DNA from: Fistulifera solaris
Lineage: Eukaryota
Assembly: GCA_030295235.1 (NCBI GenBank)
Contig: AP026162.1
Location: 1,550,001-1,614,000 of the forward strand
Length of the DNA stretch: 64,000 bases
Direction: 5' to 3'
In this document: positions 11,213 to 61,112 of the stretch, in pieces
How positions within the stretch are numbered: the first letter of the stretch is position 1
Layout of the letters: the number at the start of each line of letters is the position of its first letter
The notes under the pieces: generated by a model
What the model was told of the DNA's origin: nothing
Seen by the model: the letters and a program-made list of their open reading frames with translations, nothing else
Database searches by the model: none
Made by a program: the position numbers and the translations under genes

Positions 11213-14200
11213 TCATTGTCTAGAGCGATTTTTCTGGTGAGTGGCCAGAATATACGATGCGCCTTCACAACCTTCGCTGCTAAGCTTTCTTATTGAATCT
11301 TCAACTAGTGATGTCTTCCAGACCTTAGCTTCAATCATCCGCACGGATAACTCGGCGACTTGACTTGAGCTCGAGGTAGAAATACCGAGAGATATGATGC
11401 GACTGAGAGTCTTGACTTCCAAGCATCTTCTCTTGAGGGAACACAAACCATGATGTGACCAGGATTGGATGTCTGCGGCTAATGAAAGGTACGAGTGCAC
11501 AATCCGCCAACGACTTTCGACGCTCTCGGTGCTCGCAAGCGCGCAGTTCAAAACATCTGAGGACAACTTATCTAATTCAAATACTGCGACAAAGAGAATT
11601 CTTAGATTCTCTTCTGGAGGTATTTCCTTTCCCATATCACCCGATAGTATCTGAAAAGCTTTACTCGAATCATCAATCAAGGGCATGGCTTGATCAATGC
11701 TGAACAACTTTGACATATCACCTGAAAGTTTGTTTAAAGCATCAATACAATGTCCGACTAATTGCGCTGCATCATTTCGGTTTGAACTTTTCAAATCATT
11801 TGAAAATAATTCTTTCCCGGCGCTCGCCTCCAGTTTCATCCAGAGCGCTCTTTGACTTTCACGTACTTGTTGAAACATGCTCCCACTCTGTTCAAGTCCA
11901 TGATCAACGCCAAGTGAAGTGGCAACGGTGAGGACCCGGCGATCAAGCTGTACGGGCGACAGCAATTCCAATGCTTGCTGCAAATGTTCTCCTAACCACT
12001 TCCGCAAAACGTCGTTGCAACACTCGATCAGCACGTCGTCTCTGAAATCAATGCCTCCATTCTCAGCTAAACAGCGAGTTCTCATCTCCTCTTCGATCTT
12101 TCTTTGAAATTCTTCGATTGGCAATTTCTTAAGTAGTCGAGAAACAACAAATTCACAGATTAGCTTCATTTCCGGTTGCCGGTGAAAAAATCCATCTCTC
12201 AAATTTCTTCTCAATTTATCTTTGGGTGTAGAATACTCTTCCTCTGCTTTGACAATCCTAGGAGACGAGCTCGTGACTTGACTTAAAATGGACGGCCTTA
12301 ATTTTCTGGAGACGCCAGGGCTTTTGGTCGATTTGTTGTTTGTCCGGGAAATGCTCGCAACGAGTGAACGCAAATCTTCTAAATGCGCTATGGATGAGAA
12401 TATTGCATTCGGAGGGATTGTCGCGAAAACATCAGCCTTTTGCATTCCGTCGACATCGCTGGAAGAGAGCAAGGTGAAAGTTTGGACGCGGCTGCAACAC
12501 CGACTGCATTAGCGAAAAAGCTCTCCACAGCTAGAGCTACATGACACCCACTCACATCAGAAGCTTCCTTCGCCTTAGCTTTTTGCAATTGCCGCAAGAT
12601 TGAAAGCACCTCGACGTACGTCTTTGACTTCATAGCTGATATGTCCCAAGAGCTCATCTGAAGTAGCTCTATGATCCAAGGGACTACAAGATGTAGCTTG
12701 TTGTTCAATAGCGCACTTTCGATAACAGAAATGACACACAGTCCGCATCCCTTGAGCTGCAGTAAGGCATCTAAGGCGGGATCGGCGCTTTGTTGTTCAG
12801 TAGCTGTTCCAAAAGATCTCCAGTTGGGAGAGAAAAAGAGCAATCCAACATACCGAGCAAGCATAGACATCTCCAACAGCTTTGTTTCGCTTGTTGCATC
12901 TTCATCAGTTGTCTTTGTCATTTTGTTAATTATGGCGGATCTCAGATGAATGGCGAGGGCGTATGAGTCAGCGGAAAGAATAAACAGAAAGAAGAATTCT
13001 TGGTGCCCAGGGAACAAACGCAAAGCCTCCGACCGAGGAGAATCGGAGCTGCGAGCACGATCTGCGGCAACCTTGTGTGAGCTGCTTCGACTCTGCGATG
13101 CGGACTGTGAGAATCGTTGATGCAGCTTCTGCAATTTGTCCTTGTCTGCGATTTGCAAAAGTTCTTTGTCTGTTTCTTGCAGCGGAACCATACCAATTTG
13201 TAGGAGAAGGTCCACAAAAAAAGACGAAAACCAAGTATAGTTACTTTCCATGAGACCCTCGATCACCGTCCTTGACGACCGCTGGATCGACAAAAGTGAT
13301 TTCTCCACTTTTGAGGCATCGAGGACTTTGCCTCGTACACTAAGGAACGACCTTAGCTGATATAAGAATGCATCTCTGCTAGCTTCCCTGTTCATGTATA
13401 TAAGCTGCTCTTCAGGTGAGCGAAAGTTGTGTCGTGAATCTCGTTGTTCGTCAAACGGCAGACTCAGCAATGCTGTCTGATTGCTTGTAAAAGATGAGGA
13501 TAACATGCCGTTCCGATTCCACGCTTTTAACAGGCGGTCGCATTCATTGTAAACGGAGGGCACGAGCTCCAGAAGAGGTGGACACCGAGAGAGAGTCTCC
13601 CACATGACAGGGCCAAGACCATACAAAATCTTTTCTTGGCATCGAATTGATTCTGAAGCAAAATAAATGCAAGAGGGATTGTCGACAAGGATATGACCCA
13701 GTGGACTCTTTGACGAAATTCCATTTTTGGTTTCATTTGGAAGGACAAGTAGCCGAAATAGTAAATGAAGTTCGAGGGGAGTCGAAGGAACCAGACATGA
13801 ATCGATTAACGCCGAGTAAACAACAACCAAATGTTTTAGTGCTATGGTTTCCGACAAGCCTTCACTCTTCTGAGGGGTGAAAGCAGGCTGACGCGTTCTC
13901 TCTTTGTCCTCTTTCCACTTGAACGTTCCTGACTTTTCCGGAGTCACGGGAGCACTCGCAGATCGACTTAAAGCATTACTAGATGTGGAATTGCCAGATT
14001 TCGGTGCGAACGCTTTGGCAAACTGCTTCTGCGTAGGTACATCAAGCGGTACTTCTGAAGGCAAATCAACCAGATTTCCTTTCGACATCCCCCCATACCG
14101 ATGCATTCGAATCCGGTGTTAACGTGGCAGGGCGGATTCGTCGTTTGTTTCCTCCCTGAGAAGTGCTTTTCGTCGTCAATGTAGATTTCGTCGTCAATGT

Positions 14201-14948: not shown

Positions 14949-15320
14949 GGTGGTCCAGACAATCTGGACCAGTTGTATTTTCTTTGTATTTTCACGTTCC
15001 CAGGAAATCTGGGTGAGCGGTGTTTTCCACTTGGTCCAGAAATCTGGACCAGTTGTATTTTCACGTACCCAGGAAATCTGGGGTTTGGTGTTTACACGTG
15101 GTCCAGAAAATCTGGACCAGCTGTATTATTACATTTCCAGGAAATCTGGGTGTTTGGTGTTCACACGTGGTCCAGAAAACCTGGGGCTTGGGATGTACAT
15201 GTGTCCAGAAATTTGGATTTGTATTTCCACGTTCCCAAAAATGTCGGCGTGTGTTATTTTTTAACTGTCCACATAATCTGGACCCTTTGTATTTACACGT
15301 CTCCAGAAATCATCTGAACC
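14949..15320. repeat. Minisatellite array 1 (~67-70 bp unit) with palindromic GGTCCAGAAATCTGGACC core
   Basis: About 5 degenerate units of TGGTCCAGAAATCTGGACCAGTTGTATTT..CCCAGGAAATCTGGG..TTGGTGTT.ACACG. Confidence 0.9.
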
Positions 15321-22739: not shown

Positions 22740-24153
22740 TTATGTCAAAGGCGTCTGCTCCTCTGTTCTAGCCGATGATTGAGTACGAAATCCCAACTGA
22801 GCGACACTTCTAGTTATTTGACGGAAGCGCCGGGCAAGCTTCTGCTCATCTGGTTCCCCCTGTAACTTCGGCCGGAGTGGGTAGGCACAACCAGCAAACC
22901 GGTAAAAGTCCTTGTACTAAACGGTCTTCATACAGCGCCCTTAGCATGTCGTCTAAACGTACGAGCTGTGAGGTGTTCTTGCACATTGTTGTCTGGGATT
23001 GTTGCTCTTGTACACGATCGGTAACCATTTGTAGATCAGACTTAACGTGATCAAAGGCCTCCTTCCCAGTTTCGACTTGACCCACAAGCCATTGTAGATC
23101 GGTTACAAACTGTCGCGTCACCAAGGAGTCAGACCCAGTCCTCTTGTGAAGCACAATGATAAAACTTTCCAGTGCGTCAATATCAGGTGCACCCAGCGAC
23201 TCGCGAATCAGATGTAGCGTGTCCAAATCGGGTCGAATTCTCCGGCTTAGCTCAGGATGACTCTCAAGATACTCCGAGATGATGGCAATATCATCACTCA
23301 TTCGTAGCAAAGCCCGTCGTGTACTAATAAAAGGCTTATCACGTCGCCGTCGACAGGCATCGGCTTTTTGAATAAGAGATCGTACATAGAAACAGATGCA
23401 AGCATTTGCCGCCATCCAAAGCGCTTTGTTGTATAGTATTTCGTCGGATAGATATCGCTTGACCGTGCTCAGATAATCATCAATGCTTTGCATCAACTCT
23501 TTGACAACTTCATTCTGTATCAGTTCCTCTTCCCATGCAGCACTAAAGATCGTTTGTGGTATAGATGTGTTATGCTGTATCTTCCGCAACAGAAAGACCA
23601 GCGACCGCTCGGTCGCCTGTACGGCGAGCCGACTGAGTTCGTGGACCAGGTCGTCCCCTAACGAAAGGAATGGGCTGTTTTCTGTTTTCCCCCGTTGTGA
23701 AGTCAATTCTTCTACCAGGTTTTCCATTCGCTCGGACATGCGCAAAAATCATTCGCCGCCGCGCATGTCTCTTCCAGTGTGACATACATTCGCTGATGAT
23801 ACCGTTCCATGTGTTCGTGTTGTACGCACTTGAGAACAAAGAGCATTCCTTCGACGAAAACACGGTCGTTCCCTTGTTCGACCAAAACACTGCGCTGAAT
23901 CTGAATCAACGAAAAGACGTCCTCAGCCAGCGATGTAGAGACTGATCCGTCGAGAGCCTCGTAGAAGGTATGTTCGGTACTGTTTGTTCGCAACAACAGA
24001 CACTATTGTGAGGACAGAGAGTGGAATTTACAGGTAAACGAAGATGAACAAAACTTACGCGTAAGCGTTTCTCACGGACTCAAACGCGTGCTTTTGAAAG
24101 TGCGTCAGAAACGACTCGCCTTGCAAATCTGTTAACTTTGTCTTGGTCGCCAT
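22740..24153 (-). CDS. Exocyst Sec6 C-terminal-like protein
   Basis: LEETCAAANDF.RMSE and other CATCHR-like helical segments; GTAAGT donor at ~24058; indels at ~23745 and ~22857 (the latter extends the frame to TAA at 22740). Confidence 0.6.
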
Positions 24154-24311
24154 GATGTGCTATTGGTATAGTCTTTAAATTGTTTGCGTTTGATCACTTG
24201 TAAAGTTTGTTTGTAATAAAACAGAGCGGTGATCTTTGCAGTTTTTGTTCGTGCTACATTAAGGTTAAAGATACAGGTTGATGAAATATTGTTTTTCCCT
24301 TTTCGTTAGAT

Positions 24312-24397
24312 GCTACCTTAGCATAGTTGGTTATTGTACCTGATTCGTAATGCATCGTTAGATCAGGAGGTCGCGTGTTCGAATCACGCAGGTAGCT
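24312..24397 (+). tRNA. tRNA-Thr(CGT) with ~12-nt canonical-position intron
   Basis: Acceptor GCTACCT/AGGTAGC; anticodon stem CCTGA/TCAGG with TT-CGT-A followed by extra ATGCATCGTTAG; GTTCGAATC T-loop. Confidence 0.9.
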
Positions 24398-25352
24398 CTT
24401 TGCAAATTGATTTGCCAACTTTAAACTAGCCTAGAGAGACCTAATTCGCCTAGGTGCATTATTTTGCACCTTAGCTCTACAGATCAACTAAATAAGGGTA
24501 CACAACGGGTCCAACCGGACTATCCGCAGGGTTCGGCACCATAATTCATCTATTTGCACCACTTCTTTGCTAACCAAGGTATTTTCTTTCTAATGAATGA
24601 TGTGTAATACTTGAGGTTGCCCATGAGTCGACGCTATAGTCCAACCATTACTTGCTCGCACTCACTTAAAAACGTCTTTAAGCGTCCTGGAAGTTTGTCC
24701 ACAGCCCAGTTTCCTGCGGTGCGTATGCCCGATCTCAGCTGAGTTTTTCCGAGGAAATGGGTTCCTCCACACGACTTTACAATAGATTTTTATTCTAATA
24801 AAGTCAATTGAGGCCCAGGATCCATGAGAAGACTTGATCTTGCTCGTTCTCGCACACTAAATCATCTGCTATCGAAAAAGATTTCAAGTGATTGTGTCGT
24901 CCTGCCAGCCGACACAAGTGTTGACTATGGAGTAAGCAACCCTAGCTTTACTCCGAGTTTTAGTTTTGACCCATCATTTTTAACTTGACCTTGAAGTCAC
25001 CGTAGTCCGAATCACGCCGCTACCCTCAAAATAATTGGTCAACGAATAGATTAGTCTAATGGTCTTTCAATGCTGTACTGGAATACTTGTTAACACGACT
25101 GCTTTTACCTGTTAGTCATGAAGACTGCTACCTAACTTCTTTTGTTTTGCTAGTTTGGTACTATACTTGTTTGTTTAAAAATTTAGAGTTTATTGGCATT
25201 TCTTAGCTTTGCAATCTAATCATCGATTCAATACGACGAAATGCCTGCGTATCGTTGTCTTCCTTTTCGAGGAAATAGCACCTTGTGTACTGTAGAAATA
25301 AATGTAGTAGTAGGCGCCTTTTACCACGACTGCCGAGTGCAGACGCGATCGC

Positions 25353-28174
25353 TGACAGATTTATAATAAGATTGATTCCTGGGTGTTCATGACTGGACAG
25401 TCTGTTTGTCTGTCAGGTGTGTGTTTTGGGTGGTTCATGACTGGGAGTGAGTCATGAAGCTTGAAGTTGAAGTTGAATACCAGTGTGAGGGAAGATATGT
25501 TTTTGGATTCTTCTCTCGCTACGTCAGTGACCACGTCAGTATTTTGAGAAGGATGAGACAGCTTCTCATTTTCATTAGTTTTAGATAATGCTCACAATTT
25601 AGAAACCCAGTTGATAATGAACTAGTTGTCATTACCTCGTATCGAGTACGGTCAGAGATACATTTGCTGTGTGGAATCTCAGAGGGTTGGCACACCTTGT
25701 GAGAACGGTTGAGTCGAGTTGGCACACTTGACGAACCAGTGTTAGGAGAAGGCTGGCACGCCGGATCTTTATACTGAAGCAGTAAGTACGCGCATTTCGG
25801 TTGGCACGCCGGATTGTACTTATTGACCTATACGGCAGCGGGTGGCCAGTTGTCGTACTCTTTGTGTGTAGTGTGCAGTGACACGGTCGGGTCATTCGTT
25901 CATAGCGAGTTCGGGTGATTTTGACGTCTGTGCGTCGATTGTTGCGTGTGTCGAGTTACACGTGGAATTGGATTGTGTCGTTTGTACTCTCGCGTGGAGA
26001 GTCTCAAATTCTGGGAGCTATCTGTGCGCTCGGAATTTTGTCAGATTAACAGTCGCAAGTCTCTGTACTACTTGGGCTTTGTGATTGGTGGGTTTCCGAT
26101 GACTCTGGTTCTTTCTGAGTCATTGTTTCTCTAGTGGATACTCTTCGTTATTGGTGACGTTCCCTACTGTTCAGTGTGCGGAGAGACAGAAACACGGGGA
26201 GACACGATTTCACTGTACATTTGTCCTACTTGGTGTACAACATGATTTCTTTCAGCGTACTTTCGCGGTAAGAAACCGGGATTCAGGTTGAGTACTACGC
26301 ACCAACCTACTTTTCAGTGGGAAACACTGCATTTTCATTTTCGCTTGGTGAATTTACTGTGGAGCGGCACTGTGGGAAGTTATTTTGTCTGACGTACCTT
26401 CGAGAAGACGGGGAGTGACAGATTTATAATAAGATTGATTCCTGGGTGTTCATGACTGGACAGTCTGTTTGTCTGTCAGGTGTGTGTTTTGGGTGGTTCA
26501 TGACTGGGAGTGAGTCATGAAGCTTGAAGTTGAAGTTGAATACCAGTGTGAGGAAGATATGTTTTTGGATTCTTCTCTCGCTACGTCAGTGACCACGTCA
26601 GTATTTTGAGAAGGATGAGACAGCTTCTCATTTTCATTAGTTTTAGATAATGCTCACAATTTAGAAACCCAGTTGATAATGAACTAGTTGTCATTACCTC
26701 GTGTCGAGTACGGTCAGAGATACATTTGCTGTGTGGAATCTCAGAGGGTTGGCACACCTTGTGAGAACGGTTGAGTCGAGTTGGCACACTTGACGAACCA
26801 GTGTTAGGAGAAGGCTGGCACGCCCGGATCTTTATACTGAAGCAGTAAGTCACAGCGCATTTCGGGTTGGCACGCCGGATTGTACTTATTGACCTATACG
26901 GCAGCGGGTGGCCAGTTGTCGTACTCTTTGTGTGTAGTGTGCAGTGACACGGTCGGGTCATTCGTTCATAGCGAGTTCGGGTGATTTTGACGTCTGTGCG
27001 TCGATTGTTGCGTGTGTCGAGTTACACGTGGAATTGGATTGTGTCGTTTGTACTCTCGCGTGGAGAGTCTCAAATTCTGGGAGCTATCTGTGCGCTCGGA
27101 ATTTTGTCAGATTAACAGTCGCAAGTCTCTGTACTACTTGGGCTTTGTGATTGGTGGGTTTCCGATGACTCTGGTTCTTTCTGAGTCATTGTTTCTCTAG
27201 TGGATACTCTTCGTTATTGGTGACGTTCCCTACTGTTCAGTGTGCGGAGAGACAGAAACACGGGGAGACACGATTTCACTGTACATTTGTCCTACTTGGT
27301 GTACAACATGATTTCTTTCAGCGTACTTTCGCGGTAAGAAACCGGGATTCAGGTTGAGTACTACGCACCAACCTACTTTTCAGTGGGAAACACTGCATTT
27401 TCATTTTCGCTTGGTGAATTTACTGTGGAGCGGCACTGTGGGAAGTTATTTTGTCTGACGTACCTTCGAGAAGACGGGGAGTGACAGATTTATAATAAGA
27501 TTGATTCCTGGGTGTTCATGACTGGACAGTCTGTTTGTCTGTCAGGTGTGTGTTTTGGGTGGTTCATGACTGGGAGTGAGTCATGAAGCTTGAAGTTGAA
27601 GTTGAATACCAGTGTGAGGGAAGATATGTTTTTGGATTCTTCTCTCGCTACGTCAGTGACCACGTCAGTATTTTGAGAAGGATGAGACAGCTTCTCATTT
27701 TCATTAGTTTTAGATAATGCTCACAATTTAGAAACCCAGTTGATAATGAACTAGTTGTCATTACCTCGTATCGAATGCACGGTCAGAGATACATTTGCTG
27801 TGTGGAATCTCAGAGGGTTGGCACACCTTGTGAGAACGGTTGAGTCGAGTTGGCACACTTGACGAACCAGTGTTAGGAGAAGGCTGGCACGCCCGGATCT
27901 TTATACTGAAGCAGTAAGTACGCGCATTTCGGTTGGCACGCCCGGATTGTACTTATTGACCTATACGGCAGCGGGTGGCCAGTTGTCGTACTCTTTGTGT
28001 GTAGTGTGCAGTGACACGGTCGGGTCATTCGTTCATAGCGAAGTTCGGGTGATTTTGACGTCTGTGCGTCGATTGTTGCGTGTGTCGAGTTACACGTGGA
28101 ATTGGATTGTGTCGTTTGTACTCGCGTGGAGAGTCTCAAATTCTGGGAGCTATCTGTGCTTCGGAATTTTGTCA
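25353..28174 (+). mobile_element. Non-autonomous LTR retrotransposon (TRIM-like) in three-LTR tandem arrangement
   Basis: LTRs at 25353-26043, 26416-27109 and 27482-28174, each TGACA...TGTCA; two ~372-bp internal parts, each starting GATTAACAGTCGCA (PBS) and ending GAGAAGACGGGGAG (PPT); no gag/pol. Confidence 0.9.
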
Positions 28175-31011
28175 TGTGTCGTCGCCAATCAATTGCCATT
28201 TGTTTGGCACCCTTTTCCCCGAAAGTCTTGGTTGAGAATTTTTTGGACTTTTTCTTTCGAGCGGGTAGCCCCTTTATGGATTTTCTCACAAGCCAAAGCC
28301 ACCCAGTAAGAATCTACGTTGAGGTCTTTTGTAGCGGAAAACGCCCACAACTGAGCCGTCTTTGCGTTCTTTACGGTAGATGCGTTTTGTTGTTGGCTCG
28401 GTGGATGATATCTCGTGGAAGGAGATTTCCAGGCCGGTTGTTCTCGCGGTCTTGATCGGCATGATCGCATGTCAGATCGCTACCCAGAACCTTGCCTGTA
28501 TGTCGCCTCCAGGACAAAACGGCAAAAGTTTCGTGTTCGCCATTTTCTGCTGGTCCATGAAGGTGATGCGGAACGAGATTACCCCGTTAATAAGGCTAAT
28601 CCGGCTTTTGGATCGGAATGTACTTGCCTCGGCCGAATATCGATGACGTGACTTCCATCTTCGCTGACAAGAATATATGATCGAAGAGAGGGTGTTTCCA
28701 CCAATTGAATTTCCCACTGCTGAAATACCACGGAATGATTTCGAGCGTGGACAATTCGTAATATTTTCTGCAAGAAAAACACAAGTTGTAATCGATGAGT
28801 AATGATCGATGAGCTGAGAGCATTTGTTTTTTGCACAGCATTGCAAACGCGGAACGTACTCTTTGTCTTTGTTGATGTTGACCAGTCAGCTGTTATCGGC
28901 AATCGATATCCAATCTAAAACAACGACGCGATTGTCTTGAATGCTGCCACCACTGTGATGACCCAAATATCCCTCCGGTCGCCCGGCCTTTGAACGTGAT
29001 CAGCACTAAGTGATGAATGTAAAATGTCTTTTTGGTGTTGTTGCAGAGACTGCTATACAGATCGACTCTCAAATATCCATCGCCATCGGCTCGAGAGCTC
29101 AGCACCATGTAGGATCTGGAAAGAACATGACCATTGGCACCGGGCTTAGCGATGAAAGCCTCTCCTATGACTTCGTCAAACTCTGGGTCAAAGTTGAATT
29201 CACTTGAATTGGTCGCCAACCCTGGTCACGGCTGATGATGAAACCATTCTCGTGGCAGAGATAAACCGTCGGGCAGCGTAGGCGGATTCCGCTTCCATCA
29301 CACACAAGCCACGCTCGCGACTTGACCTTTTTCATCTCGGATTTCAATTCGATCTCCTAGTTTCATCGGTCCTTCTTCTGGTTTAGGAAAATAGTCGGTC
29401 CATTCACCGATATGGAAATCTGCAGACCCGTCATCCATGAGATTTTCATCAACCTCGTCCTGTGGCGGGTCGTTACCATTGGCGTCTGTTGCTCTTTCGG
29501 CATCTCTGTTACGTCCATTGAGTTCAAAAACATTGGATGGGATCGCTCTCAACTGATCCGTCACCAACCAGTAATTGATAATCCCCACTGGGACAGGCTT
29601 GTGCGCTTCTGGCACAAAGTCACTTGCTTCCTGCGCCGTTGCAAGCGGAATTTTGAAATCGACGTTCGCCGAAGAAGGCCTGGCTCCATCCTCTGGCTTC
29701 TGGGTTGTTCATGAAAGAGAACAAAGAATTGTTAGAGTGTTCACCGACAAGTCATCGCGAAGCAACAATTTCGACTTACGCCTTGAACCGCCAAATTAAA
29801 GCCCTAAGGTCCGGCTAGATCACGTGGACCGATTGGGAGCCGTTGATTTCCCAGATCCTCGATCTTATGGCGCAGCTTCTCCACAGCGTTTTGAAGTGAT
29901 GCAGTTCGTGCAACTCTTTGATTGGCCGCGGGCGGCTGCTGCGCGGTGTCGCCCGCAGAGGCAGCGGAGTCATCTTCAACAATAAGAACTTCGGCTTTGG
30001 AGGCAATTGCGTTGGGATCGCCACTGACAGTATGAGCCGGCTTCGAGCGGGTGCGTTGGGATCGTACTTGACCGTTAGAACTTCGGCTTTGGAGACGGTT
30101 GCGATAGAATCGCCATTGACAGTACGGACTTCGGATTTAGAGGCAGGTGCGTCGATACACTCGACTTTAGGGGAACTGTCGTCGGCTGTGACGACTTCAT
30201 CGTAGACTGTGTATTCGCTGGCACTTTCGATGTCAAGAAGCGACTTCCCCATTTGGCGTTTTCACCTTGTCGCTCTGCAAGGTCTGAAGACCTCGCCAGC
30301 GTTTTCATAGAGTCTCTGGCCTGAGTCATGCTCCGAGTCTGGCGTCGCCCAAGAGATGGCTGCTTTGAGTGGGGATCAGTTTCCTTGGCCCGAGAAGCAT
30401 TGTTGGAAGCGGAAGCAGCAGCGGTGGATTTTGATTTTGACTTGCCGGTTGCTGCTTTAGCAACAGAAGAATCGTTGGAAGCAAATGCAGAAGTTGCATG
30501 TTTCGATTCGGATTCGTTGATCTTCTCAGCAGTTTGAAAAGCGGGAGGCGTTATCGACGGCGTCATCATCCTTGAGGACAGAGAGAGCCGCTGAACCGGT
30601 TAGCGGAAGCGAGACTGACAGGCTTTTTCGATCCAGGAGAGTCGGACGAGGCCCGAAGCTTTGAGTTGTTGGTACCAGAGATCATGATAGTAGAGTGAGA
30701 AGGATACCGAGAAATGGCGGATAATAGAGAAGGCGGAAGCAAAAGCTGATGATGATTCACGGCAGGCTGGAATTTTTGTGTCTGCTGCATTGTCGCTGTT
30801 TCGAGCAACTTCTTTTCATTTCTTTCCGTGGTCGATCAGAGCTGTCAGCGCACTCGGCGGGACCTGTCGTTTTTGTGAATGGGGATCATTGCCCCTTGGC
30901 GGCTTAGTTGCAGTTGCCCTTTCACTGGAACTTTGATTGAACTGAATTTGTGCGCGTCGTAGCTTATTTAGAAGCGAGAGAAACAACAGCCCATTGTTCT
31001 TCTTCAAGCAT
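28175..31011 (-). pseudogene. Broken long gene: low-complexity N-terminus, NUMOD4-HNH, second HNH, AP2 domain
   Basis: GYLRVDL..KTFYIHHLVLITFKG.RPEGYLGHHSGGSIQDNRVVVLDWISIADN; LTCDHADQDRENNRPGNLL; GVFRY..SYWVA..KKFSTKTFGEKGAKQMAIDWRR. Several frameshifts and an in-frame TGA at 28886-28888. The 5' extent is uncertain. Confidence 0.75.
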
Positions 31012-31476
31012 GGCCGATGACTACATACTCTTTCACCAGCTAGTGAACGATTCTATGGACATAAAATAGACGACACTCACAGTTGAATTCAAATGAAGCT
31101 ATTTCTAACCAATTGAACTCCTATCACGAACGGTTTTCACTGGCCCGATACGGAACAGATTGAATGTATTGAAAATCGAATGCTAGATTTAAATGTGGGA
31201 ATGAATGAAGAATCATCATCGAACATCCGGTAAGTCATCGCAAACAACGAGCGGACGGACTACGACGACTCTCGACTCTCTAGAGTACTGTATGAGAAAA
31301 TGTACTTCCAATCTTTGCAATGATAACCTTACCCATAAGCGATAACGATAACAAACGTTCATCCCTTTTCAATAAAAAGGGTTGCGTCGACACACACACA
31401 CACCCGCTTTTATTGTTGCTGTTTTATTCTACCCTTACTCCGTATCACTGGGCAGTATAATATTCCTTAACACAAC

Positions 31477-34228
31477 ATGACATCAGGTTCATCTCATTCG
31501 TACTCGTCTCCTTCAATGTCGACATCCCAGAGACCGAAAGTGTCAGCCGTTCTCACTGGAGCGCCGCTCCTATCCGACGTCGGCGTCTTGTTAGATCAAC
31601 TGGATTCAGACGCCCGCAACTCTTCTCCGTTTGATCCAGTGGCATTTTTGAATAAGAACTTTGCCAATGAATCGATTTTGACCAATCAGCTACCTTATTT
31701 ACGCAAGGCCGTGGGCGAACGCATGGAAACATTAGATGATCGTATATCCACCGCCCTGCAGCGACAATCCGAAACCGCCGCCGCTACCCGCAAACACGTG
31801 CAAGACGCGAAAGCATCCGTAGCCGCGCTCGAAAAACGCATCAAACAAGTCCAAGAAAAGGCATCACAAAGCGAAAAAGCGGTTCTGGAAATCACTCAAG
31901 ATATGAAGCGCCTGGATTATGCCAAGCGTCATTTGCAGCGGACGATTACGACTTTGAAACAACTGCACATGTTGGTCCATGCCGTAGAGCAATTGCGCTT
32001 GTGCATCGCGCAGCAGCCATTTCCGGATTACAAGGCGGCATCGCATCTCATGGATGCGACACGCCTGTTGCTGAGTCATTTTAGTGGGTACACGCAGAAA
32101 GTGGAACCCATGCGCATTTTGTCTTTGCAAGTTCAACGATACGAAGCACAATTGAAAGATGGGCTCGTTTATGGTTTTCGAGTCGTGGCATTTGGGGCTC
32201 GGAAGGCGATGGAACTACAAGACAAAAAGAAGCCTGGAATTAAAAGTAATAGTTCAGCCGCAATGGACGATGATTCAGATCATGAGGAGACGGTGGCTGT
32301 CATGACGGTTGAGGATATGCAAGGTGGAGTTTTGGTCTTTGATGCACTTGGAAATAGCACGCGAACTCAGTTCATCCGTACGTTTTGCGAAGATTATCTG
32401 GAGGATTATGTCAAACAGTTTGAACCTCCGTCGCCCGATACAAAACCAGAACGACGCGTGTCGAGTTTCAAAGCAACCGAAGCAAAGACGGAATCAGAAA
32501 AGTCGTTCGCTGGTCTAGATCAGCTTGAGAAGCGATATTCTTGGTTTCGCGATTTATTGGAGCAGCAATTGAAAGCGAAGTTCAAGCGTGTATTTCCGGA
32601 CGATTGGAACTTGCAAGCCACTTTGGCAAGCATGTTTCTTGAGTTAGTACGTTCTGCTTAGAAGTTCATTGAATGTGCATTGTGATAACTTGTGCTTACC
32701 CTTCTCTTTACCGTTATTGCAGACTCGAGATCATGTCCTTGCACTGCTCGACGGTCCTCGAAAAGACGCAGACGCAACTAATGCTACTATTCTTTTGAAA
32801 GCACTTCAGAAAACAATTCTCTTTGAAAAGGACATTACGGCTTATCTTCAACGTGAATTCCATACCGCTTTCACAGGAATCGACTCAGCTGATGTGTCTG
32901 ATGCCAAGGCAATTAAGCCACTCTTAGGCATAGCCTCAGCAGCGTTTGAGCCGTACATGAGCCCTTATATCGGCTTGGAGGAGCAAAAGATGGATGAACA
33001 ATTGGTCGAAGCTCTTGAAGATCGTACCGTAGATACTAGAGGTGAACGGCCGGTCTTCATTTCCTCTACCAATCTATTTGTGACTATCAAAGGCAGTATG
33101 GCTCGGTGCACTGCATTGACGAAGGGCCATGCTTTCTTTTTGTTGTACCAAGCTTTCAAAGACTCTCTGCGCAAGTACGCTCAGATTTTAAACGGAAAAT
33201 TACCGTCAGTGTTGCCAAACTCCGCAGTCGTGGGCGGGTTATCGCTTCCTGGGACATTCGGAGGCAAGCAAGATCAGAATGTCGAAGCATCGTACCGTCT
33301 TCCTCCTGGGGAAGAAATCACCGTCTGTCACGTTATCAGTACATGCGATTACTGCGCTGATACCGTAGAGGCTTTAGAAGATCTGATTCGAGATACAATC
33401 GATGAGGAATATCAGGATAAAATTGACATGATGTCTGACCAGGAAGTCTTTCATGAGACAACTGCCAAGTCGATTCGGGTTCTGGTCTCTGGTCTTTGTA
33501 ACCGACTTGATGGCGCTCTCAAAAGTATGGCCGCAATGAATTGGGGAACCTGGGATTTAGTAGGAGAAGAGAGTTCATACGTCCGCATGATCCACGAAGA
33601 AATCCAGCCAATGGTGTTGCAAATTCGTGGATTACTTCCTGCATCCTACTTTCGTAGCTTCTGCGATAAGTTTGCCAGTCAGTTCATTTCTCTTTACAGT
33701 GACAATCTAATGCGCTTGAAGCGAATCAGCGAGCCGGGAACACAGCAAATATTGCTGGATGTGTATAGCGTCAAGACACTCTTGCTCAAGCTTCCGATCC
33801 TAGAGGATGGAAAGGGATCAAAGTCGGGTGCGGCAGGAACAGCCCTCGCCCCGGCTATGTACACGAAAATGGTACAAAAACAATTTAGCGGCATCGAGAC
33901 TCTTCTAAAACTTGTCGGTACACCCAACGATCTTTTGATAGAGAATTTCAAGGTTCAAACAAGCAATGGAAAGCCTATCGATCTTCAGGTTGTTATGAAT
34001 TTGAAAGGATTGAAGCGAAACGAACAAGTCAGTATGCTGGAAAAGTATGGATTAGATCCCGTAAGTGCGCTAAAATCAGTAACCTCCGGCTTGACATCGG
34101 CAACGATCGTGTCAGAACGTGTTCAAGCTTTGCAAGACCAAGGATCTACCGTGGCTGCAAAGATGAATTCAGATTTGAGTCAGATGCGACAAAAAGTTGA
34201 CGACTTCCGCAAGTCCTTTAGGCCATAA
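31477..34228 (+). CDS. VPS53: GARP/EARP subunit Vps53
   Basis: FDPVAFLN, SEKAVLEITQDMKRLDYAKRHL...LKQLHMLV and GTQQILLDVYSVK motifs; intron 32647-32722. Confidence 0.93.
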
Positions 34229-39366: not shown

Positions 39367-41412
39367 ATGAGTGCTAGAGCGATCCGGGCCTTAAGAGGAG
39401 GTAGTCATGAAGCGCACTTAGCGGAGAACGCGGATGCCGACGACGACTCCTCATCCGAAGAATACGATGAAAAACCGCGTTCGAGGCCATCGGCCTTCTC
39501 CGCCATGCTGGACACCGACGATGAAGAAGACGACAGCGACACCGGTGAAGAAGACACTGGATCCGAAGATGGAAATACTGATGTGCCAAAAGGGGGAAGC
39601 GAACGCAACAACGACGCTTTAATGAACCGTAAAACAAAACAGTCTGCGACCTCGCAATCGGCACACAATACAAAAGAACGACGACAAGGAAGGACAAAAG
39701 GATGATACCGAATCGGAAGAAGAGGACTTGGACACGCTACTCAACGAATTTACCCAGCATGATATTCAGCAGAATGAAGAAACGAAGCAGCACAAATCCA
39801 GTTTCTTTTCCCAGATTTGCGGAGTACAAAAGAGATTTATCCTAGATCTCGATGTTGATGCAGCCATGCGAAATGCATTATTGAACGGTGATTTAAGTCA
39901 TACACGAGGAACGAGCAATCAGAAAAGTCGACAGGTGCTTCTTTTTGGTCCACCTCGTGATAATTGGCCTCGTCCTCTTCATTTTGTTGGCGGTGGTATC
40001 GGAATGGTCACGTACGAACAAAGTCCGCGACCAATCCCCTGGCCTTACTCGGACATTGCGACACTAGTAAGGAATGACAACAAAAAAGATCTTATCGAAT
40101 TTGTTCAGGATATGAATCACTGGTTTACATTTCAGCATGCTCAGGACTGCTCTCGAGATTTGGAAGATTATGCCGTTGTAAAGCAGACGGGCGATTTGAA
40201 CGCTTTAGTCATGTTCGCGGCGCATCATCCCTATGTGACGGATGCACTGTTGCAGTTGACGGGCGTCTTATATCAAACAAACCATAGTCAAGAAGGGTTG
40301 GCGTTACTGCGACGATGCTTGTGGGTGTACGAGAGCTCCGCAATGTTGCCGTTTAACAACCGCGTGCTGGATGGAGCGGCCCTCATGGACATGGATCAAC
40401 CAGAAAATGCGACTTTCTTTCGATCACTTTTCAAACTGATCCAAGTCAGCACTGTGGCTGCTCTGCCACGTACTGCTGCGGCCGTCTGCCGCTATATTCT
40501 GGCTCTAGACCCGCTGCGTGATCCTATGCATGTTCTTGCTGTGTTGGATGCGTTCACGATAAATTGCAAGTCCGATACCTTTGATCAATGGCTCATTGAT
40601 TTGGTCGACAACAATTGTATTTCTATTTATTTTCGTGATGAGGAAAATCCAAAGCGTGTGTTTCAATGCACACTTGGGGAAATGCCCAACTGGTTGTTGT
40701 CGTATTCGCTTGCGCAGTATAGATTACACGGAAAGGAGGGCAGCTTTGATGGTCTCCGCAAGCTTTGACCCAATTTCCGGAAATCGTTTCGTTATTACTC
40801 CAGGAACTGGAGGTAGATATTACTGGAAGATCTTTTTTACGGGATTGGCCAACCGCTTTGGAAAAAGCTACGGAGCGGAGTTTCAGTACTAGGCGTTCTT
40901 GGGGAAGACAGCAAGGTGAACTGGATCCACATGAAGTTCAAAGAACAGTTCAAACCGCGGACAAAATACTAGCGCTGTACGTTCGACTAACGGCCAAAGT
41001 TTGGGGCGGCGACGACATTTTGCAGTTTCTATACGATACTTTGGTCACCCTTCCAGAATCGGAATCCCCGGCGCTTCCTCCAGCGGCTATCATGCGATAC
41101 TCTGCCTTGAATCCTGGTGACTTCCATAATCGTGTGGAACTACTTCCACAAGATATGAATATCATGGATGGTGGTATGATTGCGCACGCCATGACTGTGG
41201 TCACGAATCGCCCACGTTTTCTGAGGCACATGCCACGAGGAGCGATGCATGGTCAGCAACGGATGGACATCGAAAACTTACCAGCTGGTTTTCCTGCTCT
41301 TTTTGGTCCGCCCACGAATGTCGTGGATCCAGACTGGCCTTTGGTGGAAGTCTTGTGGAGGAGTTTTCTTCCATGGAATCACGTCGAAGGAGTCCGGCCT
41401 CCAGCAAGGTAG
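39367..41412 (+). CDS. TCF25: TCF25/Rqc1 ribosome quality control factor
   Basis: Acidic N-terminus; HPYVTDALLQL, LRRCLWVYE, ENATFFRSLF and LALDPLRDPM motifs; frameshifts at ~39690 and ~40750. Confidence 0.82.
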
Positions 41413-45499: not shown

Positions 45500-47941
45500 A
45501 TGTATCCGTTGTTTCGTTCCGTCAAGTCGATCTGCATAGTTCTATGGACCGTGCTTTGGATCATTCCGTTGCATCATTCCTTTCATCTGACACACCGCCG
45601 ATCACAATTTGCAACGACACGGAACGCGCATGCATCTACTGGATGGTTTCCTGTCTTGGAAGTGGAACAGGAGGATGATATATTTCATGAAAACGATGCG
45701 CAGGAAATATTAGAAGCGCAGTCGGCCATTTTGGCGGCCGACTTAGCGCGCGCTCGACTGAATTCGATCGAGAAAACATCCACAATCAACGCAACCTTTA
45801 CACGCGAAATGGAACCATTCGTACGGGGTCGATTTATGGATCTAACATGTACGGCTGTGGGTGAACAGAGTCTCGAGAATTTATTCTTTGATCAATCTGC
45901 TTTGGTTCAACGTGCCGTTGAGGAGGCGTCCACCTGGGATGTTCTCCGTGGAGCCGTCCTCACCTTCCAGTCGCTGTGTGCCATGGCTACGCAAGTAGGA
46001 TTGCGGGGACCGCCGGAACAGTTAAAACGGATGGTAGCTCATTTAGACGATCGGAATGATAAAACGTTGATCGAACGAGATTTTCGACACACGTGGGACC
46101 GGGATAGTGTGCGGCGACTCAAATATAAGGTCGATCGGTCTCCCGCTCTGGATTTGCTCGCCGAACTCATGTGGAAACGAACGCCACAGGGTGCTTTTGA
46201 TTTACTTATTAGACTGGGAGCTTGGACGGAACACGAAGATCTGGCGTTACTGCGCAGTGGATTTCCATTACGATTCACCGAGGAAGAGGATGCATTGGCG
46301 AAACAAGCTTTCAAAGACGAACGTGACCCTGATGCGATGTTGGGAATTCGGAAAGATCTGAGGCATTTGAAGGTGTACACGATTGATGGCGCTTCGACAA
46401 CTGAAATCGATGACGGTCTTTCCCTAGAGACTGTATCCAAACCCGACGGGACGACGCGAAATCGGATATGGATTCACATTGCTGATGCAGACCGCTGGGC
46501 ACCGCGTGGGTCGAAGCTCTTGAAATCGCTAGGCAACGAATTACATCGTTGTATCTTCCTTTGGGATCAATATTTATGTTTCCCTCCAGCGTCAGCTCCG
46601 ACTTAATGGCGCTAAAGACCCACAGAGATTCATACGCTTTGTCATTAGCGGTTGAGCTGAACGAAGACGGATCGGTCGATCCAGACTCGTTGATGCTGAC
46701 TCCTTCGATTATTCGTGTTACATATCGCCTTACCTATGATGAGGTAGACGAAATGCTTGAAGAAGGTATTGGATATCATGAGGAATGGGAGTTAGGTGCT
46801 TTGCTCGCGGAAGCGAAAAAGCGCCGCAAATATCGCTGTGCGAATGGTTCGAGCGAACAGCTCATTCCTCGTCCCATCCCGACAGCCTCTCTGTCGGTAG
46901 ATCGCAACAATACGCTTCCAGATGAGTTTGATATTTCGTTGAGCATACAAGTCGCTTACAACTCGGGGCAGAATCAAAGCAAAGCGACACTTGAAAACCC
47001 GAATTCACCTCCCAGCTTTGAAGATCCTGTATCATCATCGTATCTTTTGGTTACCGAGGCTATGATCATGTCGGGGGAGTGCCTCGGACACTGGAAAACT
47101 AAAATAGAACACGACTATAAACAAAACAGCGGCAATGAACACGATAATACTTTGCGGCTTGCCTTTCGAGCTCAACCCAAACCAGGTAAGTGACTTGTGT
47201 CTCCTTATGACCAAGCTCTTCCAAGCGTCTCAACGCTCGTTTCCAGAGTTTCTACAGAGATTGCGAGAATACAAAACGTTTTTAGATTTATTAGAACAGA
47301 ATGTCGGCGATGGTTATTGTCACGCCTGGTACGGCCGCCGTTTTTTGCAAGGTGCAAAAGTATCGGAAACCAAAATGCCCCACGCCGGACTCGGTCTTAG
47401 TAGCTATGTGCAATGGAGTAGCCCGATCCGCCGTTTCTCCGATCTGCAAGTCCATTCTTGCATCAAACGATATCTGCGGAGAAACCGTGTCTATGAGTTA
47501 TGGAAAGCGGGAGAGAGTATTCCGGACGGACTTACTTCACTAGATCTTGGTCTTCCGCAAGGTTTCGAGGATGAGAGCGGCCGACTAAAACCGCCAACAG
47601 CACCAATAAAGACAGATATGCTGGACAACGATATTGATTTCATGGAAGGAGGAGGCTTATTGGGTGCCGCAAGAAATCTCCAGAGACGGTCCCAGGAGTA
47701 TTGGCACTTTGAGTACATTCGCCGAGCATATGTTGCTGACCCTGGGAAGGTCTATGATGCTGTAATCCTTGGTCTTGTCGATCCCGCGAAGCGTCAACAT
47801 GCTATATATGTTTATGAGCTTGGTTTGGAACACCGCTACACCTCACCAGCTGGCATACTAGATGCAGGTGTCAAATTGAGACTCTTGGTGGATGATGTCT
47901 CTCCACGGCACGGATTACTATCATTCGTCCGCACAATGTAA
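45500..47941 (+). CDS. Ribonuclease II/R (RNB domain) family protein, probably organellar
   Basis: YTIDGASTTEIDDGLS, IHIAD, YLP, HAGLGLSSYVQWSSPIRRFSDLQVH motifs; frameshift at ~46520; intron from 47186. Confidence 0.9.
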
Positions 47942-59459: not shown

Positions 59460-61112
59460 ATGAGCAGCACAGCGACCCCTTATTATCAGCAGGGTCGTAC
59501 CCTCAGCCACTTGTGGTGAGGGGGGACGTATGTAGCACCGGATCGAGGTACCGCCAAACACTCTAAAGATTCGCAATCTGGAGTGTACGTAAATTCCAAT
59601 GCAGCTCGTCTCTACGATGAAGGGCTGACAGTAACGGATTTGAAGCCCGATGCTCCTGCTGGGCGTCCCTGTCGTGATGTGTTTTGGGGCCTACTGTTCT
59701 ATGCGCATATATTCCTTTTGGCGGGTCTGGCTTTCTTATTCACGCCGACTATGATTCAAGACGTCGCCGAGGGCGTCGAACAAGGCGGGCAACGAATGAT
59801 GCGGATGCTAGAGGAAAGAAACTACGGCAACGAAAACGACGAGTCTGGTATTAGTCCTGCGGCTCTTGTTGTTTCACTTTGTTTGTCGAGTGTGTACGCG
59901 CTAGGCGTCTCAACTCTAGCACTTGGTTTCATGATGTCCTTTGCCGAAGTTCTCATCAAGCTGGCTCTCTTCTTTAATATCGCTTTCTTCGGGGTACTTG
60001 CAACTTTTTTCTTTCCTTGGAGGAGCGATTGGTGCGGCTCTCATGTGTCTTCTTATGAGTGCGTTTTCGGCTTATTATGCTTACCGAGTATGGGATCGAA
60101 TACCGTTCGCGGCTGCTAACTTGGTGACAGCAGTTACGGCGGTTCGTGCCAATATGGGCCTCGCTTTTTACGCATATTTGTCTTTGGTGATTCTTTTTGG
60201 TTGGAGTATCTTCTGGGCGATAAGTTCGGTCTCTACCATGTATGTTCTGGGAGGGTGCAACCCCCAACTCGAATGTCAGAATGAAGTCGGTGCGTCGATC
60301 ATCTTCTTGTTCCTGATTAGCTACTATTGGACGATTCAAGTCATTTCTAATGTAGTGCACGTCACAACCAGTGGTACCGTCGGCACATGGTGGATGGTTC
60401 CGGAAGAAGCGAATGGATGCTGCTCACAAGCCGTGCGAGATTCATACTATCGAAGCATGACGACATCCTTTGGAAGCATCTGTTTAGGGAGTCTGATTGT
60501 GGCGATTTTACAAGCGATCAAGGAGACTCTTCACCATGCAAGAGAAGAACATGGTAGTGCTCTAGCGTGCTGCGCTGAATGTATTATCGGTTGCGTGGAA
60601 AGTCTAATGGAATATTTTAACAAGTGGGCATTCGGTACGTTTGTCAGCATATCCGTTCAACTTTTCCAATCAATCAACCTCACGCACGTATCATCGAACG
60701 ATCTAAAGTTTATGTTGGGCTTTATGGTTTCAGCTTTGTAGAAGCGGGTGGTAATGTCATGAAACTCTTTAGGGAACGAGGATGGACAAGTATCATTACT
60801 GATTACATGATCGACACGGTGTTGTTCATGGTTAGTTTGGGAATCGCGATTCTCGTTGGAGTTCTGGCGATGTTCACCAGTGCTTTTCAGGGTGGTAATG
60901 ACGGGGGAACACTGGGCCTGTCGTTTGTCATTGGATTCATCGTTGGTTATAGTATGTGCACGACTCTTTTTTCAGTTGTCAGCAGCGCTGTCAACACGGT
61001 AATCGTGTGCTACGCAGAAGCGCCAAATGAGTTTCAAGCCAACCACCAGGAGCTTTCAAACAACATGAGGGATGCATGGCGAAGAACGTGGCCCAATGAA
61101 TTCAATTACTAG
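59460..61112 (+). CDS. Choline transporter-like (CTL/SLC44/Pns1) membrane protein
   Basis: CRDVFWGLLF, SFGSICLGSLIVA, YFNKWAF and YVGLYGFSFVEAG motifs; T-run indel at ~60008; intron ~60635-60708. Confidence 0.88.

Follow-up and report, generated by a model that had tools for sequence, protein, structure and literature searches.

The question raised by this locus is whether a diatom chromosome carries a single gene for a phage-type endonuclease with two HNH units and an AP2 domain. The DNA analysed (hereafter, the window) is a 64 kb stretch of contig AP026162.1 of Fistulifera solaris, and all coordinates given are window positions. The original prediction had joined several minus-strand frames at 28175..29300 into one intron-less protein with a long disordered N-terminus, a NUMOD4-like part, two HNH motifs and an AP2 domain. 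The presence of phage-type (I-HmuI-like) HNH endonuclease sequence within a eukaryotic nuclear context was confirmed. Nevertheless, the results point to two adjacent HNH genes on the same strand, both of them inactivated, and not to one double-HNH and AP2 protein; we assign this reading a probability of about 0.6.

According to this reading, gene 1 (29689-28886) is a now broken member of a diatom family of HNH genes, and remnant 2 (~28590-28173) would be what is left of a more decayed HNH_3 gene with a C-terminal AP2 domain, an arrangement known in the free-standing homing endonucleases of phages and viruses. The 3' end of remnant 2 is cut off at the terminus of an array of retroelements that resemble long terminal repeat (LTR) elements. 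The domains themselves, the damage seen against intact relatives and this LTR junction are direct observations. Both genes would descend, we infer, from selfish or horizontally acquired endonuclease genes that have become non-functional. Two genes are preferred to one because those members of the gene 1 family that extend to the HNH motif terminate shortly beyond it and because tblastn shows no relation between them and the second HNH unit (unit 2). The main features of the locus are the following:

28886..29689, minus strand: pseudogene 1, from a family of I-HmuI-like diatom HNH_3 proteins, placed by frameshift-aware alignment to the database proteins P0001, P0002 and P0003
28889..28981, minus strand: HNH1 catalytic motif RPEGYLGHH..DNRVVVLDWISIADNS, with the His and both Asn of the H-N-N motif present
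28596..28887, minus strand: spacer between HNH1 and HNH2, 290 nt without TAA, TAG or TGA in any minus-strand frame
28422..28517, minus strand: HNH2 motif ..LTCDHADQDRENNRPGNL.., inside the open piece 28371-28586, core of remnant 2
28243..28399, minus strand: candidate N-terminal strands of AP2, ..SVVGVFRYKRPQRR.. and ..SYWVALACEK.., in two other frames, by resemblance seen by eye
28173..28262, minus strand: C-terminal half of AP2, KKFSTKTFGEKGAKQMAIDWRR, matched by Pfam AP2 below the gathering score

The 110-aa piece read from 28893-29225 led to one longer protein, P0001 (250 aa, 80% identical, annotated as 'hypothetical protein'), and a HMMER search with P0001 among 1.84 billion (1.84e9) representatives (E<=1e-3) returned 23 proteins. 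P0001-P0009 make up a eukaryote-type family, P0011-P0023 are bacterial or phage-type proteins and P0010 is a false positive. In the frameshift-aware protein-to-DNA alignment, residues 1-250 of P0001 are placed on 29689-28942 in a colinear way, with 212 of the 250 residues identical (84.8%), and the tblastn comparison of gene 1 with the family gave E=3.6e-108. The start of gene 1, an ATG at 29689-29687, was placed by alignment to P0001, and the feature thus runs further than the interval first proposed, while its description as intron-less holds over 29689-28942. When the 23 proteins were compared with the window by tblastn, the matches with E<1e-3 were confined to 28853-29702, and therefore there is one such locus in the 64 kb.

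Gene 1 does not keep an uninterrupted reading frame. Relative to P0001 it is frameshifted near 29671 (-1), 29309 (+1), 29203 (-1) and 28982 (+1), and it ends at a TGA (28888-28886) in a position where P0002 has Arg, about 10 codons short of the ends of P0002 and P0003. As far as the sequence can tell, the copy in the window probably could not produce the family protein, given these four frameshifts and the premature stop.

Concerning the catalytic motif, the first HNH unit of the original prediction (RPEGYLGHH..DNRVVVLDW) is well founded: the piece 28893-29225 matches HNH families of PHROG (best E=8.6e-6), and the relatives agree with it. By inspection it reads GHH..DN..ADN, with the positions of the catalytic His and the metal-binding Asn present; the roles of these residues, here and in HNH2, are taken to be those of I-HmuI. 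The HNH_3 domain of Pfam is divided by a frameshift in unit 1, and the relatives themselves score 16-26.7 bits, P0008 being the only one above the cut-off of 24.8.

Unit 2 was analysed by scanning 12 stop-to-stop minus-strand pieces of the locus against Pfam. HNH_3 (PF13392) was found on one of them, 28371-28586, with E=7.2e-6 and 26.0 bits, which is above the cut-off of 24.8, and this upholds the second motif of the original prediction (CDHADQDRENNRPGNL..ANNK). The motif reads DH..NN..NL..ANN, with the catalytic positions present by inspection, and the piece also matches six PHROG HNH families (E 0.009-0.08). An Atlas lookup, to be used as a lead only, assigned 22 of 30 feature matches to generic HNH_3 clusters. 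HNH2 is taken as real. AP2 (PF00847) was detected on one other piece, 27873-28313 (residues 19-47, profile positions 23-51 of 54, E=9.3e-5, 23.1 bits), and the 46-aa AP2 piece alone gave E=3.4e-5 and 24.5 bits over profile positions 22-51 of 54. The AP2 piece is in the frame of HNH2 (28586 vs 28313, 273 nt), with stops between them at 28371-28373 and 28314-28316. These data make an AP2 domain in remnant 2 probable. The rest of unit 2, including its N-terminal part, is unrecognisable, and the NUMOD4 label given before was not sustained, as Pfam NUMOD4 (PF07463) matched none of the 12 pieces at E<=1. The strings on which the single protein had been built, among them KFSTKTFGEKGAKQMAIDWRR, which is present on the minus strand as described, are spread over three minus-strand frames in the translation of 28100-29420.

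It could be argued that the locus derives from one ancestral gene, now degenerate, whose single product began with a disordered region, continued with two HNH units and finished with an AP2 domain. The units are close together on the same strand, and proteins with two NUMOD4-HNH_3 units exist, 8 of the 13 phage-type matches being of this kind. Two further features leave room for a former fusion and count against two separate genes: no ATG was found ahead of unit 2 in its putative first frame, and the frame of gene 1 remains open for 137 codons past the TGA, to 28472. However, the seven family members long enough to include the HNH motif all finish 9-35 residues beyond it, AP2 is present in none of the nine members, and a stop lies at that place in the window. 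Moreover, the window peptide NINKDKEYV aligns with NINQDRRYV, at the C-terminus of P0003. Unit 2 is also nearer in frameshift-aware alignment to the phage-type proteins (raw scores 53-59) than to the diatom family (32-46), and by tblastn it had no match with E<0.37 among the 23 proteins; since its scores are slightly better with the phage-type proteins, it is not a recent duplicate of unit 1. A single ancestral gene is thus quite unlikely, and the claim of one protein with two HNH units and AP2 was not supported. Nor would such an architecture be as unusual as was proposed, considering the 8 two-unit proteins of 13 and the fusion NUMOD4-HNH_3-AP2, matching I-HmuI, that passages of PMC12220804 report from a Symbiodinium polinton-like virus (PLV).

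Regarding the spacer between the two units, two overlapping weak readings compete in it, one similar to NUMOD4 (WEIQLVETPSLRSYILVSEDG) and the other similar to a helix-turn-helix (HTH) motif (GNSIGGNTLSS..), both with raw scores of 48-52 and neither of them established. No Pfam family was found in the spacer frames. As a separate observation, its 290-nt run is the longest stop-free run of this kind in the window on either strand, followed by runs of 273 nt (12968-13242) and 248 nt (15015-15264), and no meaning is drawn from it.

The evidence for unit 2 is less uniform than that for gene 1, and several results speak against a second gene. The AP2 match covers half of the domain and stays below the gathering score of 33.3, in a Lys-rich stretch. 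Its candidate N-terminal strands, GVFRYKRPQRR and YWVALA, gave no Pfam match at E<=10 in the two in-frame pieces. A frameshift-tolerant AP2 matrix, made from eight viral AP2 segments, left the locus at noise level (rank 85 of 428 bins, or 158 of 428 without frameshifts). In a frameshift-aware alignment with an HNH-AP2 protein from IMG/VR (L011), 61 of 100 shuffles were equal or better. Furthermore, the 71-aa HNH2 piece had no relatives in phage records (tblastn), in IMG/VR or among longer database proteins. The AP2 piece had no match in PDB by phmmer, and AP2 is present in just 10% of the members of its top Atlas cluster. The AP2 domain of the original prediction is therefore retained for its C-terminal half, matched by Pfam, whereas its N-terminal half (GVFRY.., YWVA) was unsupported by Pfam, matrix and alignment.

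From these results it might be thought that gene 1 alone is real and that the HNH2 and AP2 signals arise in non-coding DNA by chance or from its composition. Nevertheless, the HNH_3 match exceeds the curated Pfam cut-off and contains the full DH..NN..NL..N motif, and the AP2 match follows HNH2 in the same frame, in the order found in known HNH-AP2 proteins. Two independent chance matches to families that occur together in nature would be an unlikely coincidence, and this explanation is considered very improbable.

The point at which the AP2 match ends is informative for the reading of remnant 2 as a truncated gene. Self-comparison of the window revealed the following feature directly beside it:

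25353..28174, plus strand: LTR-like tandem array with the order A-B-A-B-A

The array has 2.65 copies of a unit of ~1065 bp, with 98.6-98.9% identity between copies. Part A (691 bp) starts with TGACAG and ends with TTGTCA, so that its termini are TGACA..TGTCA, and part B (372 bp) carries at its end, directly before the next A, the purine tract GAGAAGACGGGGAG. No obvious tRNA primer-binding site, target-site duplication or coding capacity was found in the array. It has the appearance of a small LTR retroelement, non-autonomous, whose copies multiplied through unequal recombination. The last A extends to 28174 and the Pfam AP2 match ends at 28173-28179, in profile position 49-51 of 54. As the match stops at the LTR terminus, the original C-terminus and the stop codon of remnant 2 are gone.

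The inactivation of gene 1 depends on the frame changes being present in the genome. They could instead be indel errors of the assembly, in which case gene 1 would be intact and possibly expressed. Some facts agree with such an artefact and disagree with a dead gene: the read-through keeps 84.8% identity to P0001, remains conserved where the frame is shifted and meets a single stop, and three of the four shifts lie at short runs (tt, gg, ggg). The stop-free spacer in all three minus frames could be seen in the same way. In addition, a gene encoding an RNB (RNase II-like) protein switches frame at a GGG run without a gap in the DNA (46505-46530, plus strand), where profile position 55 ends at ~46525 and the match resumes at ~46522 in another frame. 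Either the assembly has an indel here or this conserved gene is truly frameshifted, and a likely indel there suggests that some indel errors exist.

The remaining genes of the window serve as a reference for this question. Open reading frames (ORFs) of 396-576 aa with continuous Pfam matches are found elsewhere in the window, for example EPSP synthase over profile positions 2-417 of 417. Other frame junctions resemble GT..AG introns, as in VPS53 (~32630-32710), RNB (~47180-47260) and a choline transporter (60634-60708), and the Tcf25 junction near 40750 is ambiguous, with no clear donor site. Against about one suspect site in ~40 kb of ORFs, gene 1 has at least four shifts in 0.8 kb, and the next 0.7 kb contain further stops and shifts; this ratio makes real decay likelier than assembly error. 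Moreover, the TGA is a substitution and not an indel, and an indel error offers no explanation for the physical truncation of AP2 by the LTR terminus. An artefact of assembly is consequently judged unlikely, and it is highly likely that the decay of gene 1 is real. If it is, it should be recent, because identity stays high inside the shifted segments.

Having set the broken state of gene 1 apart, the nature of its intact relatives can be considered. The profile of the family matched I-HmuI (1u3e) in PDB with E=1.3e-5, as the only match there, and PHROG HNH families with E down to 4e-13. An AlphaFold2 (AF2) model was built with the family alignment for the relative P0008, not for the copy in the window, and it reached a mean predicted local distance difference test score (pLDDT) of 75.6 and a predicted template modelling score (pTM) of 0.75. 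This model matched 1u3e in Foldseek (E=3.8e-4, probability 1.0) and in VIA-align (Z=8.8, root-mean-square deviation 3.1 over 100 residues), the next chain being I-PpoI with Z=3.6. It also matched 119 viral proteins with E<=1e-3, mostly phage HNH or NUMOD4 homing endonucleases, together with HNH proteins of giant viruses and the Ectocarpus virus protein EsV-1-119. P0008 is thus predicted by the model to have the I-HmuI-type fold, with an N-terminal sheet and a beta-beta-alpha-metal core. By analogy with I-HmuI, and considering the fold and the conserved His and Asn, the intact members of the family would in all likelihood be DNA-binding proteins that nick or cleave DNA at a His-Me (beta-beta-alpha-metal) site.

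I-HmuI is an intron-encoded nicking homing endonuclease of phage SPO1, and it has in common with the diatom family the N-terminal DNA-binding sheet, the HNH core and the His and Asn positions of the motif. Unlike I-HmuI, the diatom proteins are nuclear-encoded, present an additional conserved N-terminal module and long disordered N-termini, and lack the C-terminal NUMOD3/HTH part.

In the databases, P0007 is named 'hypothetical protein FisN_8Lu353 [Fistulifera solaris]' (GAX15357.1), and therefore the family occurs in diatoms. The nine clusters are all unnamed or called 'hypothetical' or 'uncharacterized', with one or two members each. The alignment of eight members showed variable and often long low-complexity N-termini, followed by a conserved N-terminal module (..NYWL..IP.N..LNG.., then P..Y.CH.DGF) and by the core GY.RV.LY...HL.LITF.G.RP.G..G.H...DN...L.W....NS. 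The His of the HNH motif is invariant in the eight sequences, seven of which reach the end of the motif, while the P0001 model stops inside the core. Pfam NUMOD4 was absent from the nine members (E<=0.01). Residues 157-249 of P0001 align by phmmer to proteins whose corresponding region is NUMOD4 plus HNH_3, and among the bacterial and phage-type proteins HNH_3 is present in all 13 and NUMOD4 in 12 of 13.

P0006 and P0002, on contigs of equal length, may each be one half of a single gene. That the family is rare, and that its gene models in two other genomes are truncated or split, would suit selfish genes with a patchy distribution that are decaying, but would suit equally a host gene that is lineage-specific and evolves fast. 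Two scans of metagenome contigs, one with the family alignment and one with P0001, found nothing, and the 11 loci found with the alignment in IMG/VR share the generic HNH core alone. No paper describing the diatom HNH family was found in full-text searches, and the family appears to be undescribed. In agreement with the original prediction, the family of gene 1 is rare and unnamed. The false positive P0010 is a 612-aa protein with about ten near-identical 60-residue repeats; it matched P0001 with E=3e-6 through a short repeated motif and seems to be unrelated to the HNH family.

Upstream of gene 1 there is a region that may correspond to such a disordered N-terminus:

29804..30599, minus strand: Ser/Ala/Lys-rich low-complexity open frames in three phases, seen in the translation and with a stop near 29804-29815 lying between them and the P0001-type start

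By its character, this region may be a degenerate disordered N-terminus like those of P0003, P0007 and P0009. The frames have no Pfam match, and the relatives gave no tblastn alignment upstream of 29702. The long disordered N-terminus that had been predicted is a feature of the relatives, and these frames may also belong to gene 1. The region also contains a 48-bp tandem repeat at 29988-30142 (3.3 copies, 67% matches), encoding repeated peptide units of the SKAEVL type on the minus strand.

With regard to the genomic context, the window is gene-dense eukaryotic nuclear DNA with 46% G+C, in which ~40 kb are occupied by ORFs of at least 150 aa. These ORFs contain cellular domains (VPS53, DEAD helicase, zinc alcohol dehydrogenase, Sec6-like, RNB, Tcf25, EPSP synthase, WD40 and choline transporter). 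The HNH locus is inside the largest ORF-poor gap of the window (~23750-31470), and it forms, in a nuclear genome of diatom-like character, an island of ~7 kb that is poor in genes and flanked by tRNA-Thr and VPS53. VPS53, identified by Pfam, starts at 31471 on one side, and the other flank is the following:

24312..24398, plus strand: tRNA at the edge of the island, read by ARAGORN as Thr(CGT) with a 12-nt intron in the intron-permitting mode and as Ile(GAT) with default settings

Both flanks agree with those first named, and the reading as an intron-bearing tRNA-Thr suits a nuclear gene. Rfam detected the tRNA alone in the surroundings of the locus.

Signs of a larger mobile or viral element were sought in the same region. 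Among the 47 flanking ORFs (at least 45 aa, from 23750-26600 and 29650-31500), none had any Pfam match with E<=0.01, viral or transposon hallmarks (capsid, integrase, reverse transcriptase, packaging ATPase or polymerase) included. The neighbours are cellular genes and do not place the locus in an integrated virus or PLV fragment. Inverted repeats of at least 30 nt were not found in 24000-33000, and neither were terminal repeats. The G+C content of the locus (46-49%) equals the window average and gives no sign of mobility, a further point that does not favour the descent from mobile genes contained in our reading.

HNH-AP2 proteins are known from several systems. Passages of PMC5029118 and PMC1702500, citing Magnani et al. 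2004, mention HNH-AP2 endonucleases in cyanobacteria, ciliates and viruses and a proposed link to the AP2 factors of plants. Phage proteins with HNH_3 plus AP2 and with HNH_3 plus NUMOD4, including gp02 of phage WCHABP1, are described in PMC5936750. According to a passage of PMC1702500, AP2 is also prevalent in the transcription factors of plants, apicomplexans and diatoms.

Remnant 2 resembles the free-standing HNH-AP2 endonucleases in that its HNH_3 precedes AP2, with strand and frame shared by the two, and the same order is found in the IMG/VR loci L011/L012, L013, L014, L028, L029 and L031, in gp02 of phage WCHABP1 and in the Symbiodinium PLV. Unlike the intact endonucleases, it is a fragment, with stops between the domains, an undetectable N-terminal half of AP2 and a 3' end cut by the LTR. 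No close relation was seen between it and the viral AP2 subfamily sampled with the eight segments, and, in contrast with the Symbiodinium PLV, it has no surrounding set of viral or PLV genes. It would share the AP2 domain with the diatom transcription factors, but the AP2 of the remnant is attached to a nuclease and decayed, and therefore it is no transcription factor.

Regarding the significance of these results, real decay would mean that the locus has no function of its own, and its value would be that of a pointer. It leads to a rare nuclear-encoded family of I-HmuI-like nucleases, with nine clusters among the representatives searched. Furthermore, the presence of an HNH-AP2 remnant on a chromosome of diatom type is relevant to a long-standing hypothesis, which derives the AP2 domains of eukaryotes from endonucleases of this kind. 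Each architecture is already known (HNH-AP2 and NUMOD4-HNH_3-AP2 in phages, ciliates and viral elements of protists), and the modestly new part is the uncharacterised diatom family of gene 1.

Tentatively, and with the odds rather against it, a broader picture could be drawn, in which diatom nuclear genomes hold an undescribed and patchy family of I-HmuI-like HNH nickases with their own N-terminal module and a disordered, probably nuclear-targeting N-terminus. These nickases would come from homing endonucleases of giant viruses or phages and would be selfish or domesticated, and this locus would keep one of them beside an HNH-AP2 relic within a stramenopile chromosome, a relic of the kind of gene from which eukaryotic AP2 factors have been proposed to descend.

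Finally, other proteins related to L011 were observed in IMG/VR. The loci L046, L032-L035, L017, L024 and L043 encode NUMOD4-HNH_3 proteins on contigs of 110-510 kb, two of which are labelled GVMAG. L046 contains a 430-aa stop-to-stop frame with two NUMOD4-HNH_3 units and, considering these tandem units and the very large contigs, giant viruses also carry tandem-unit forms.

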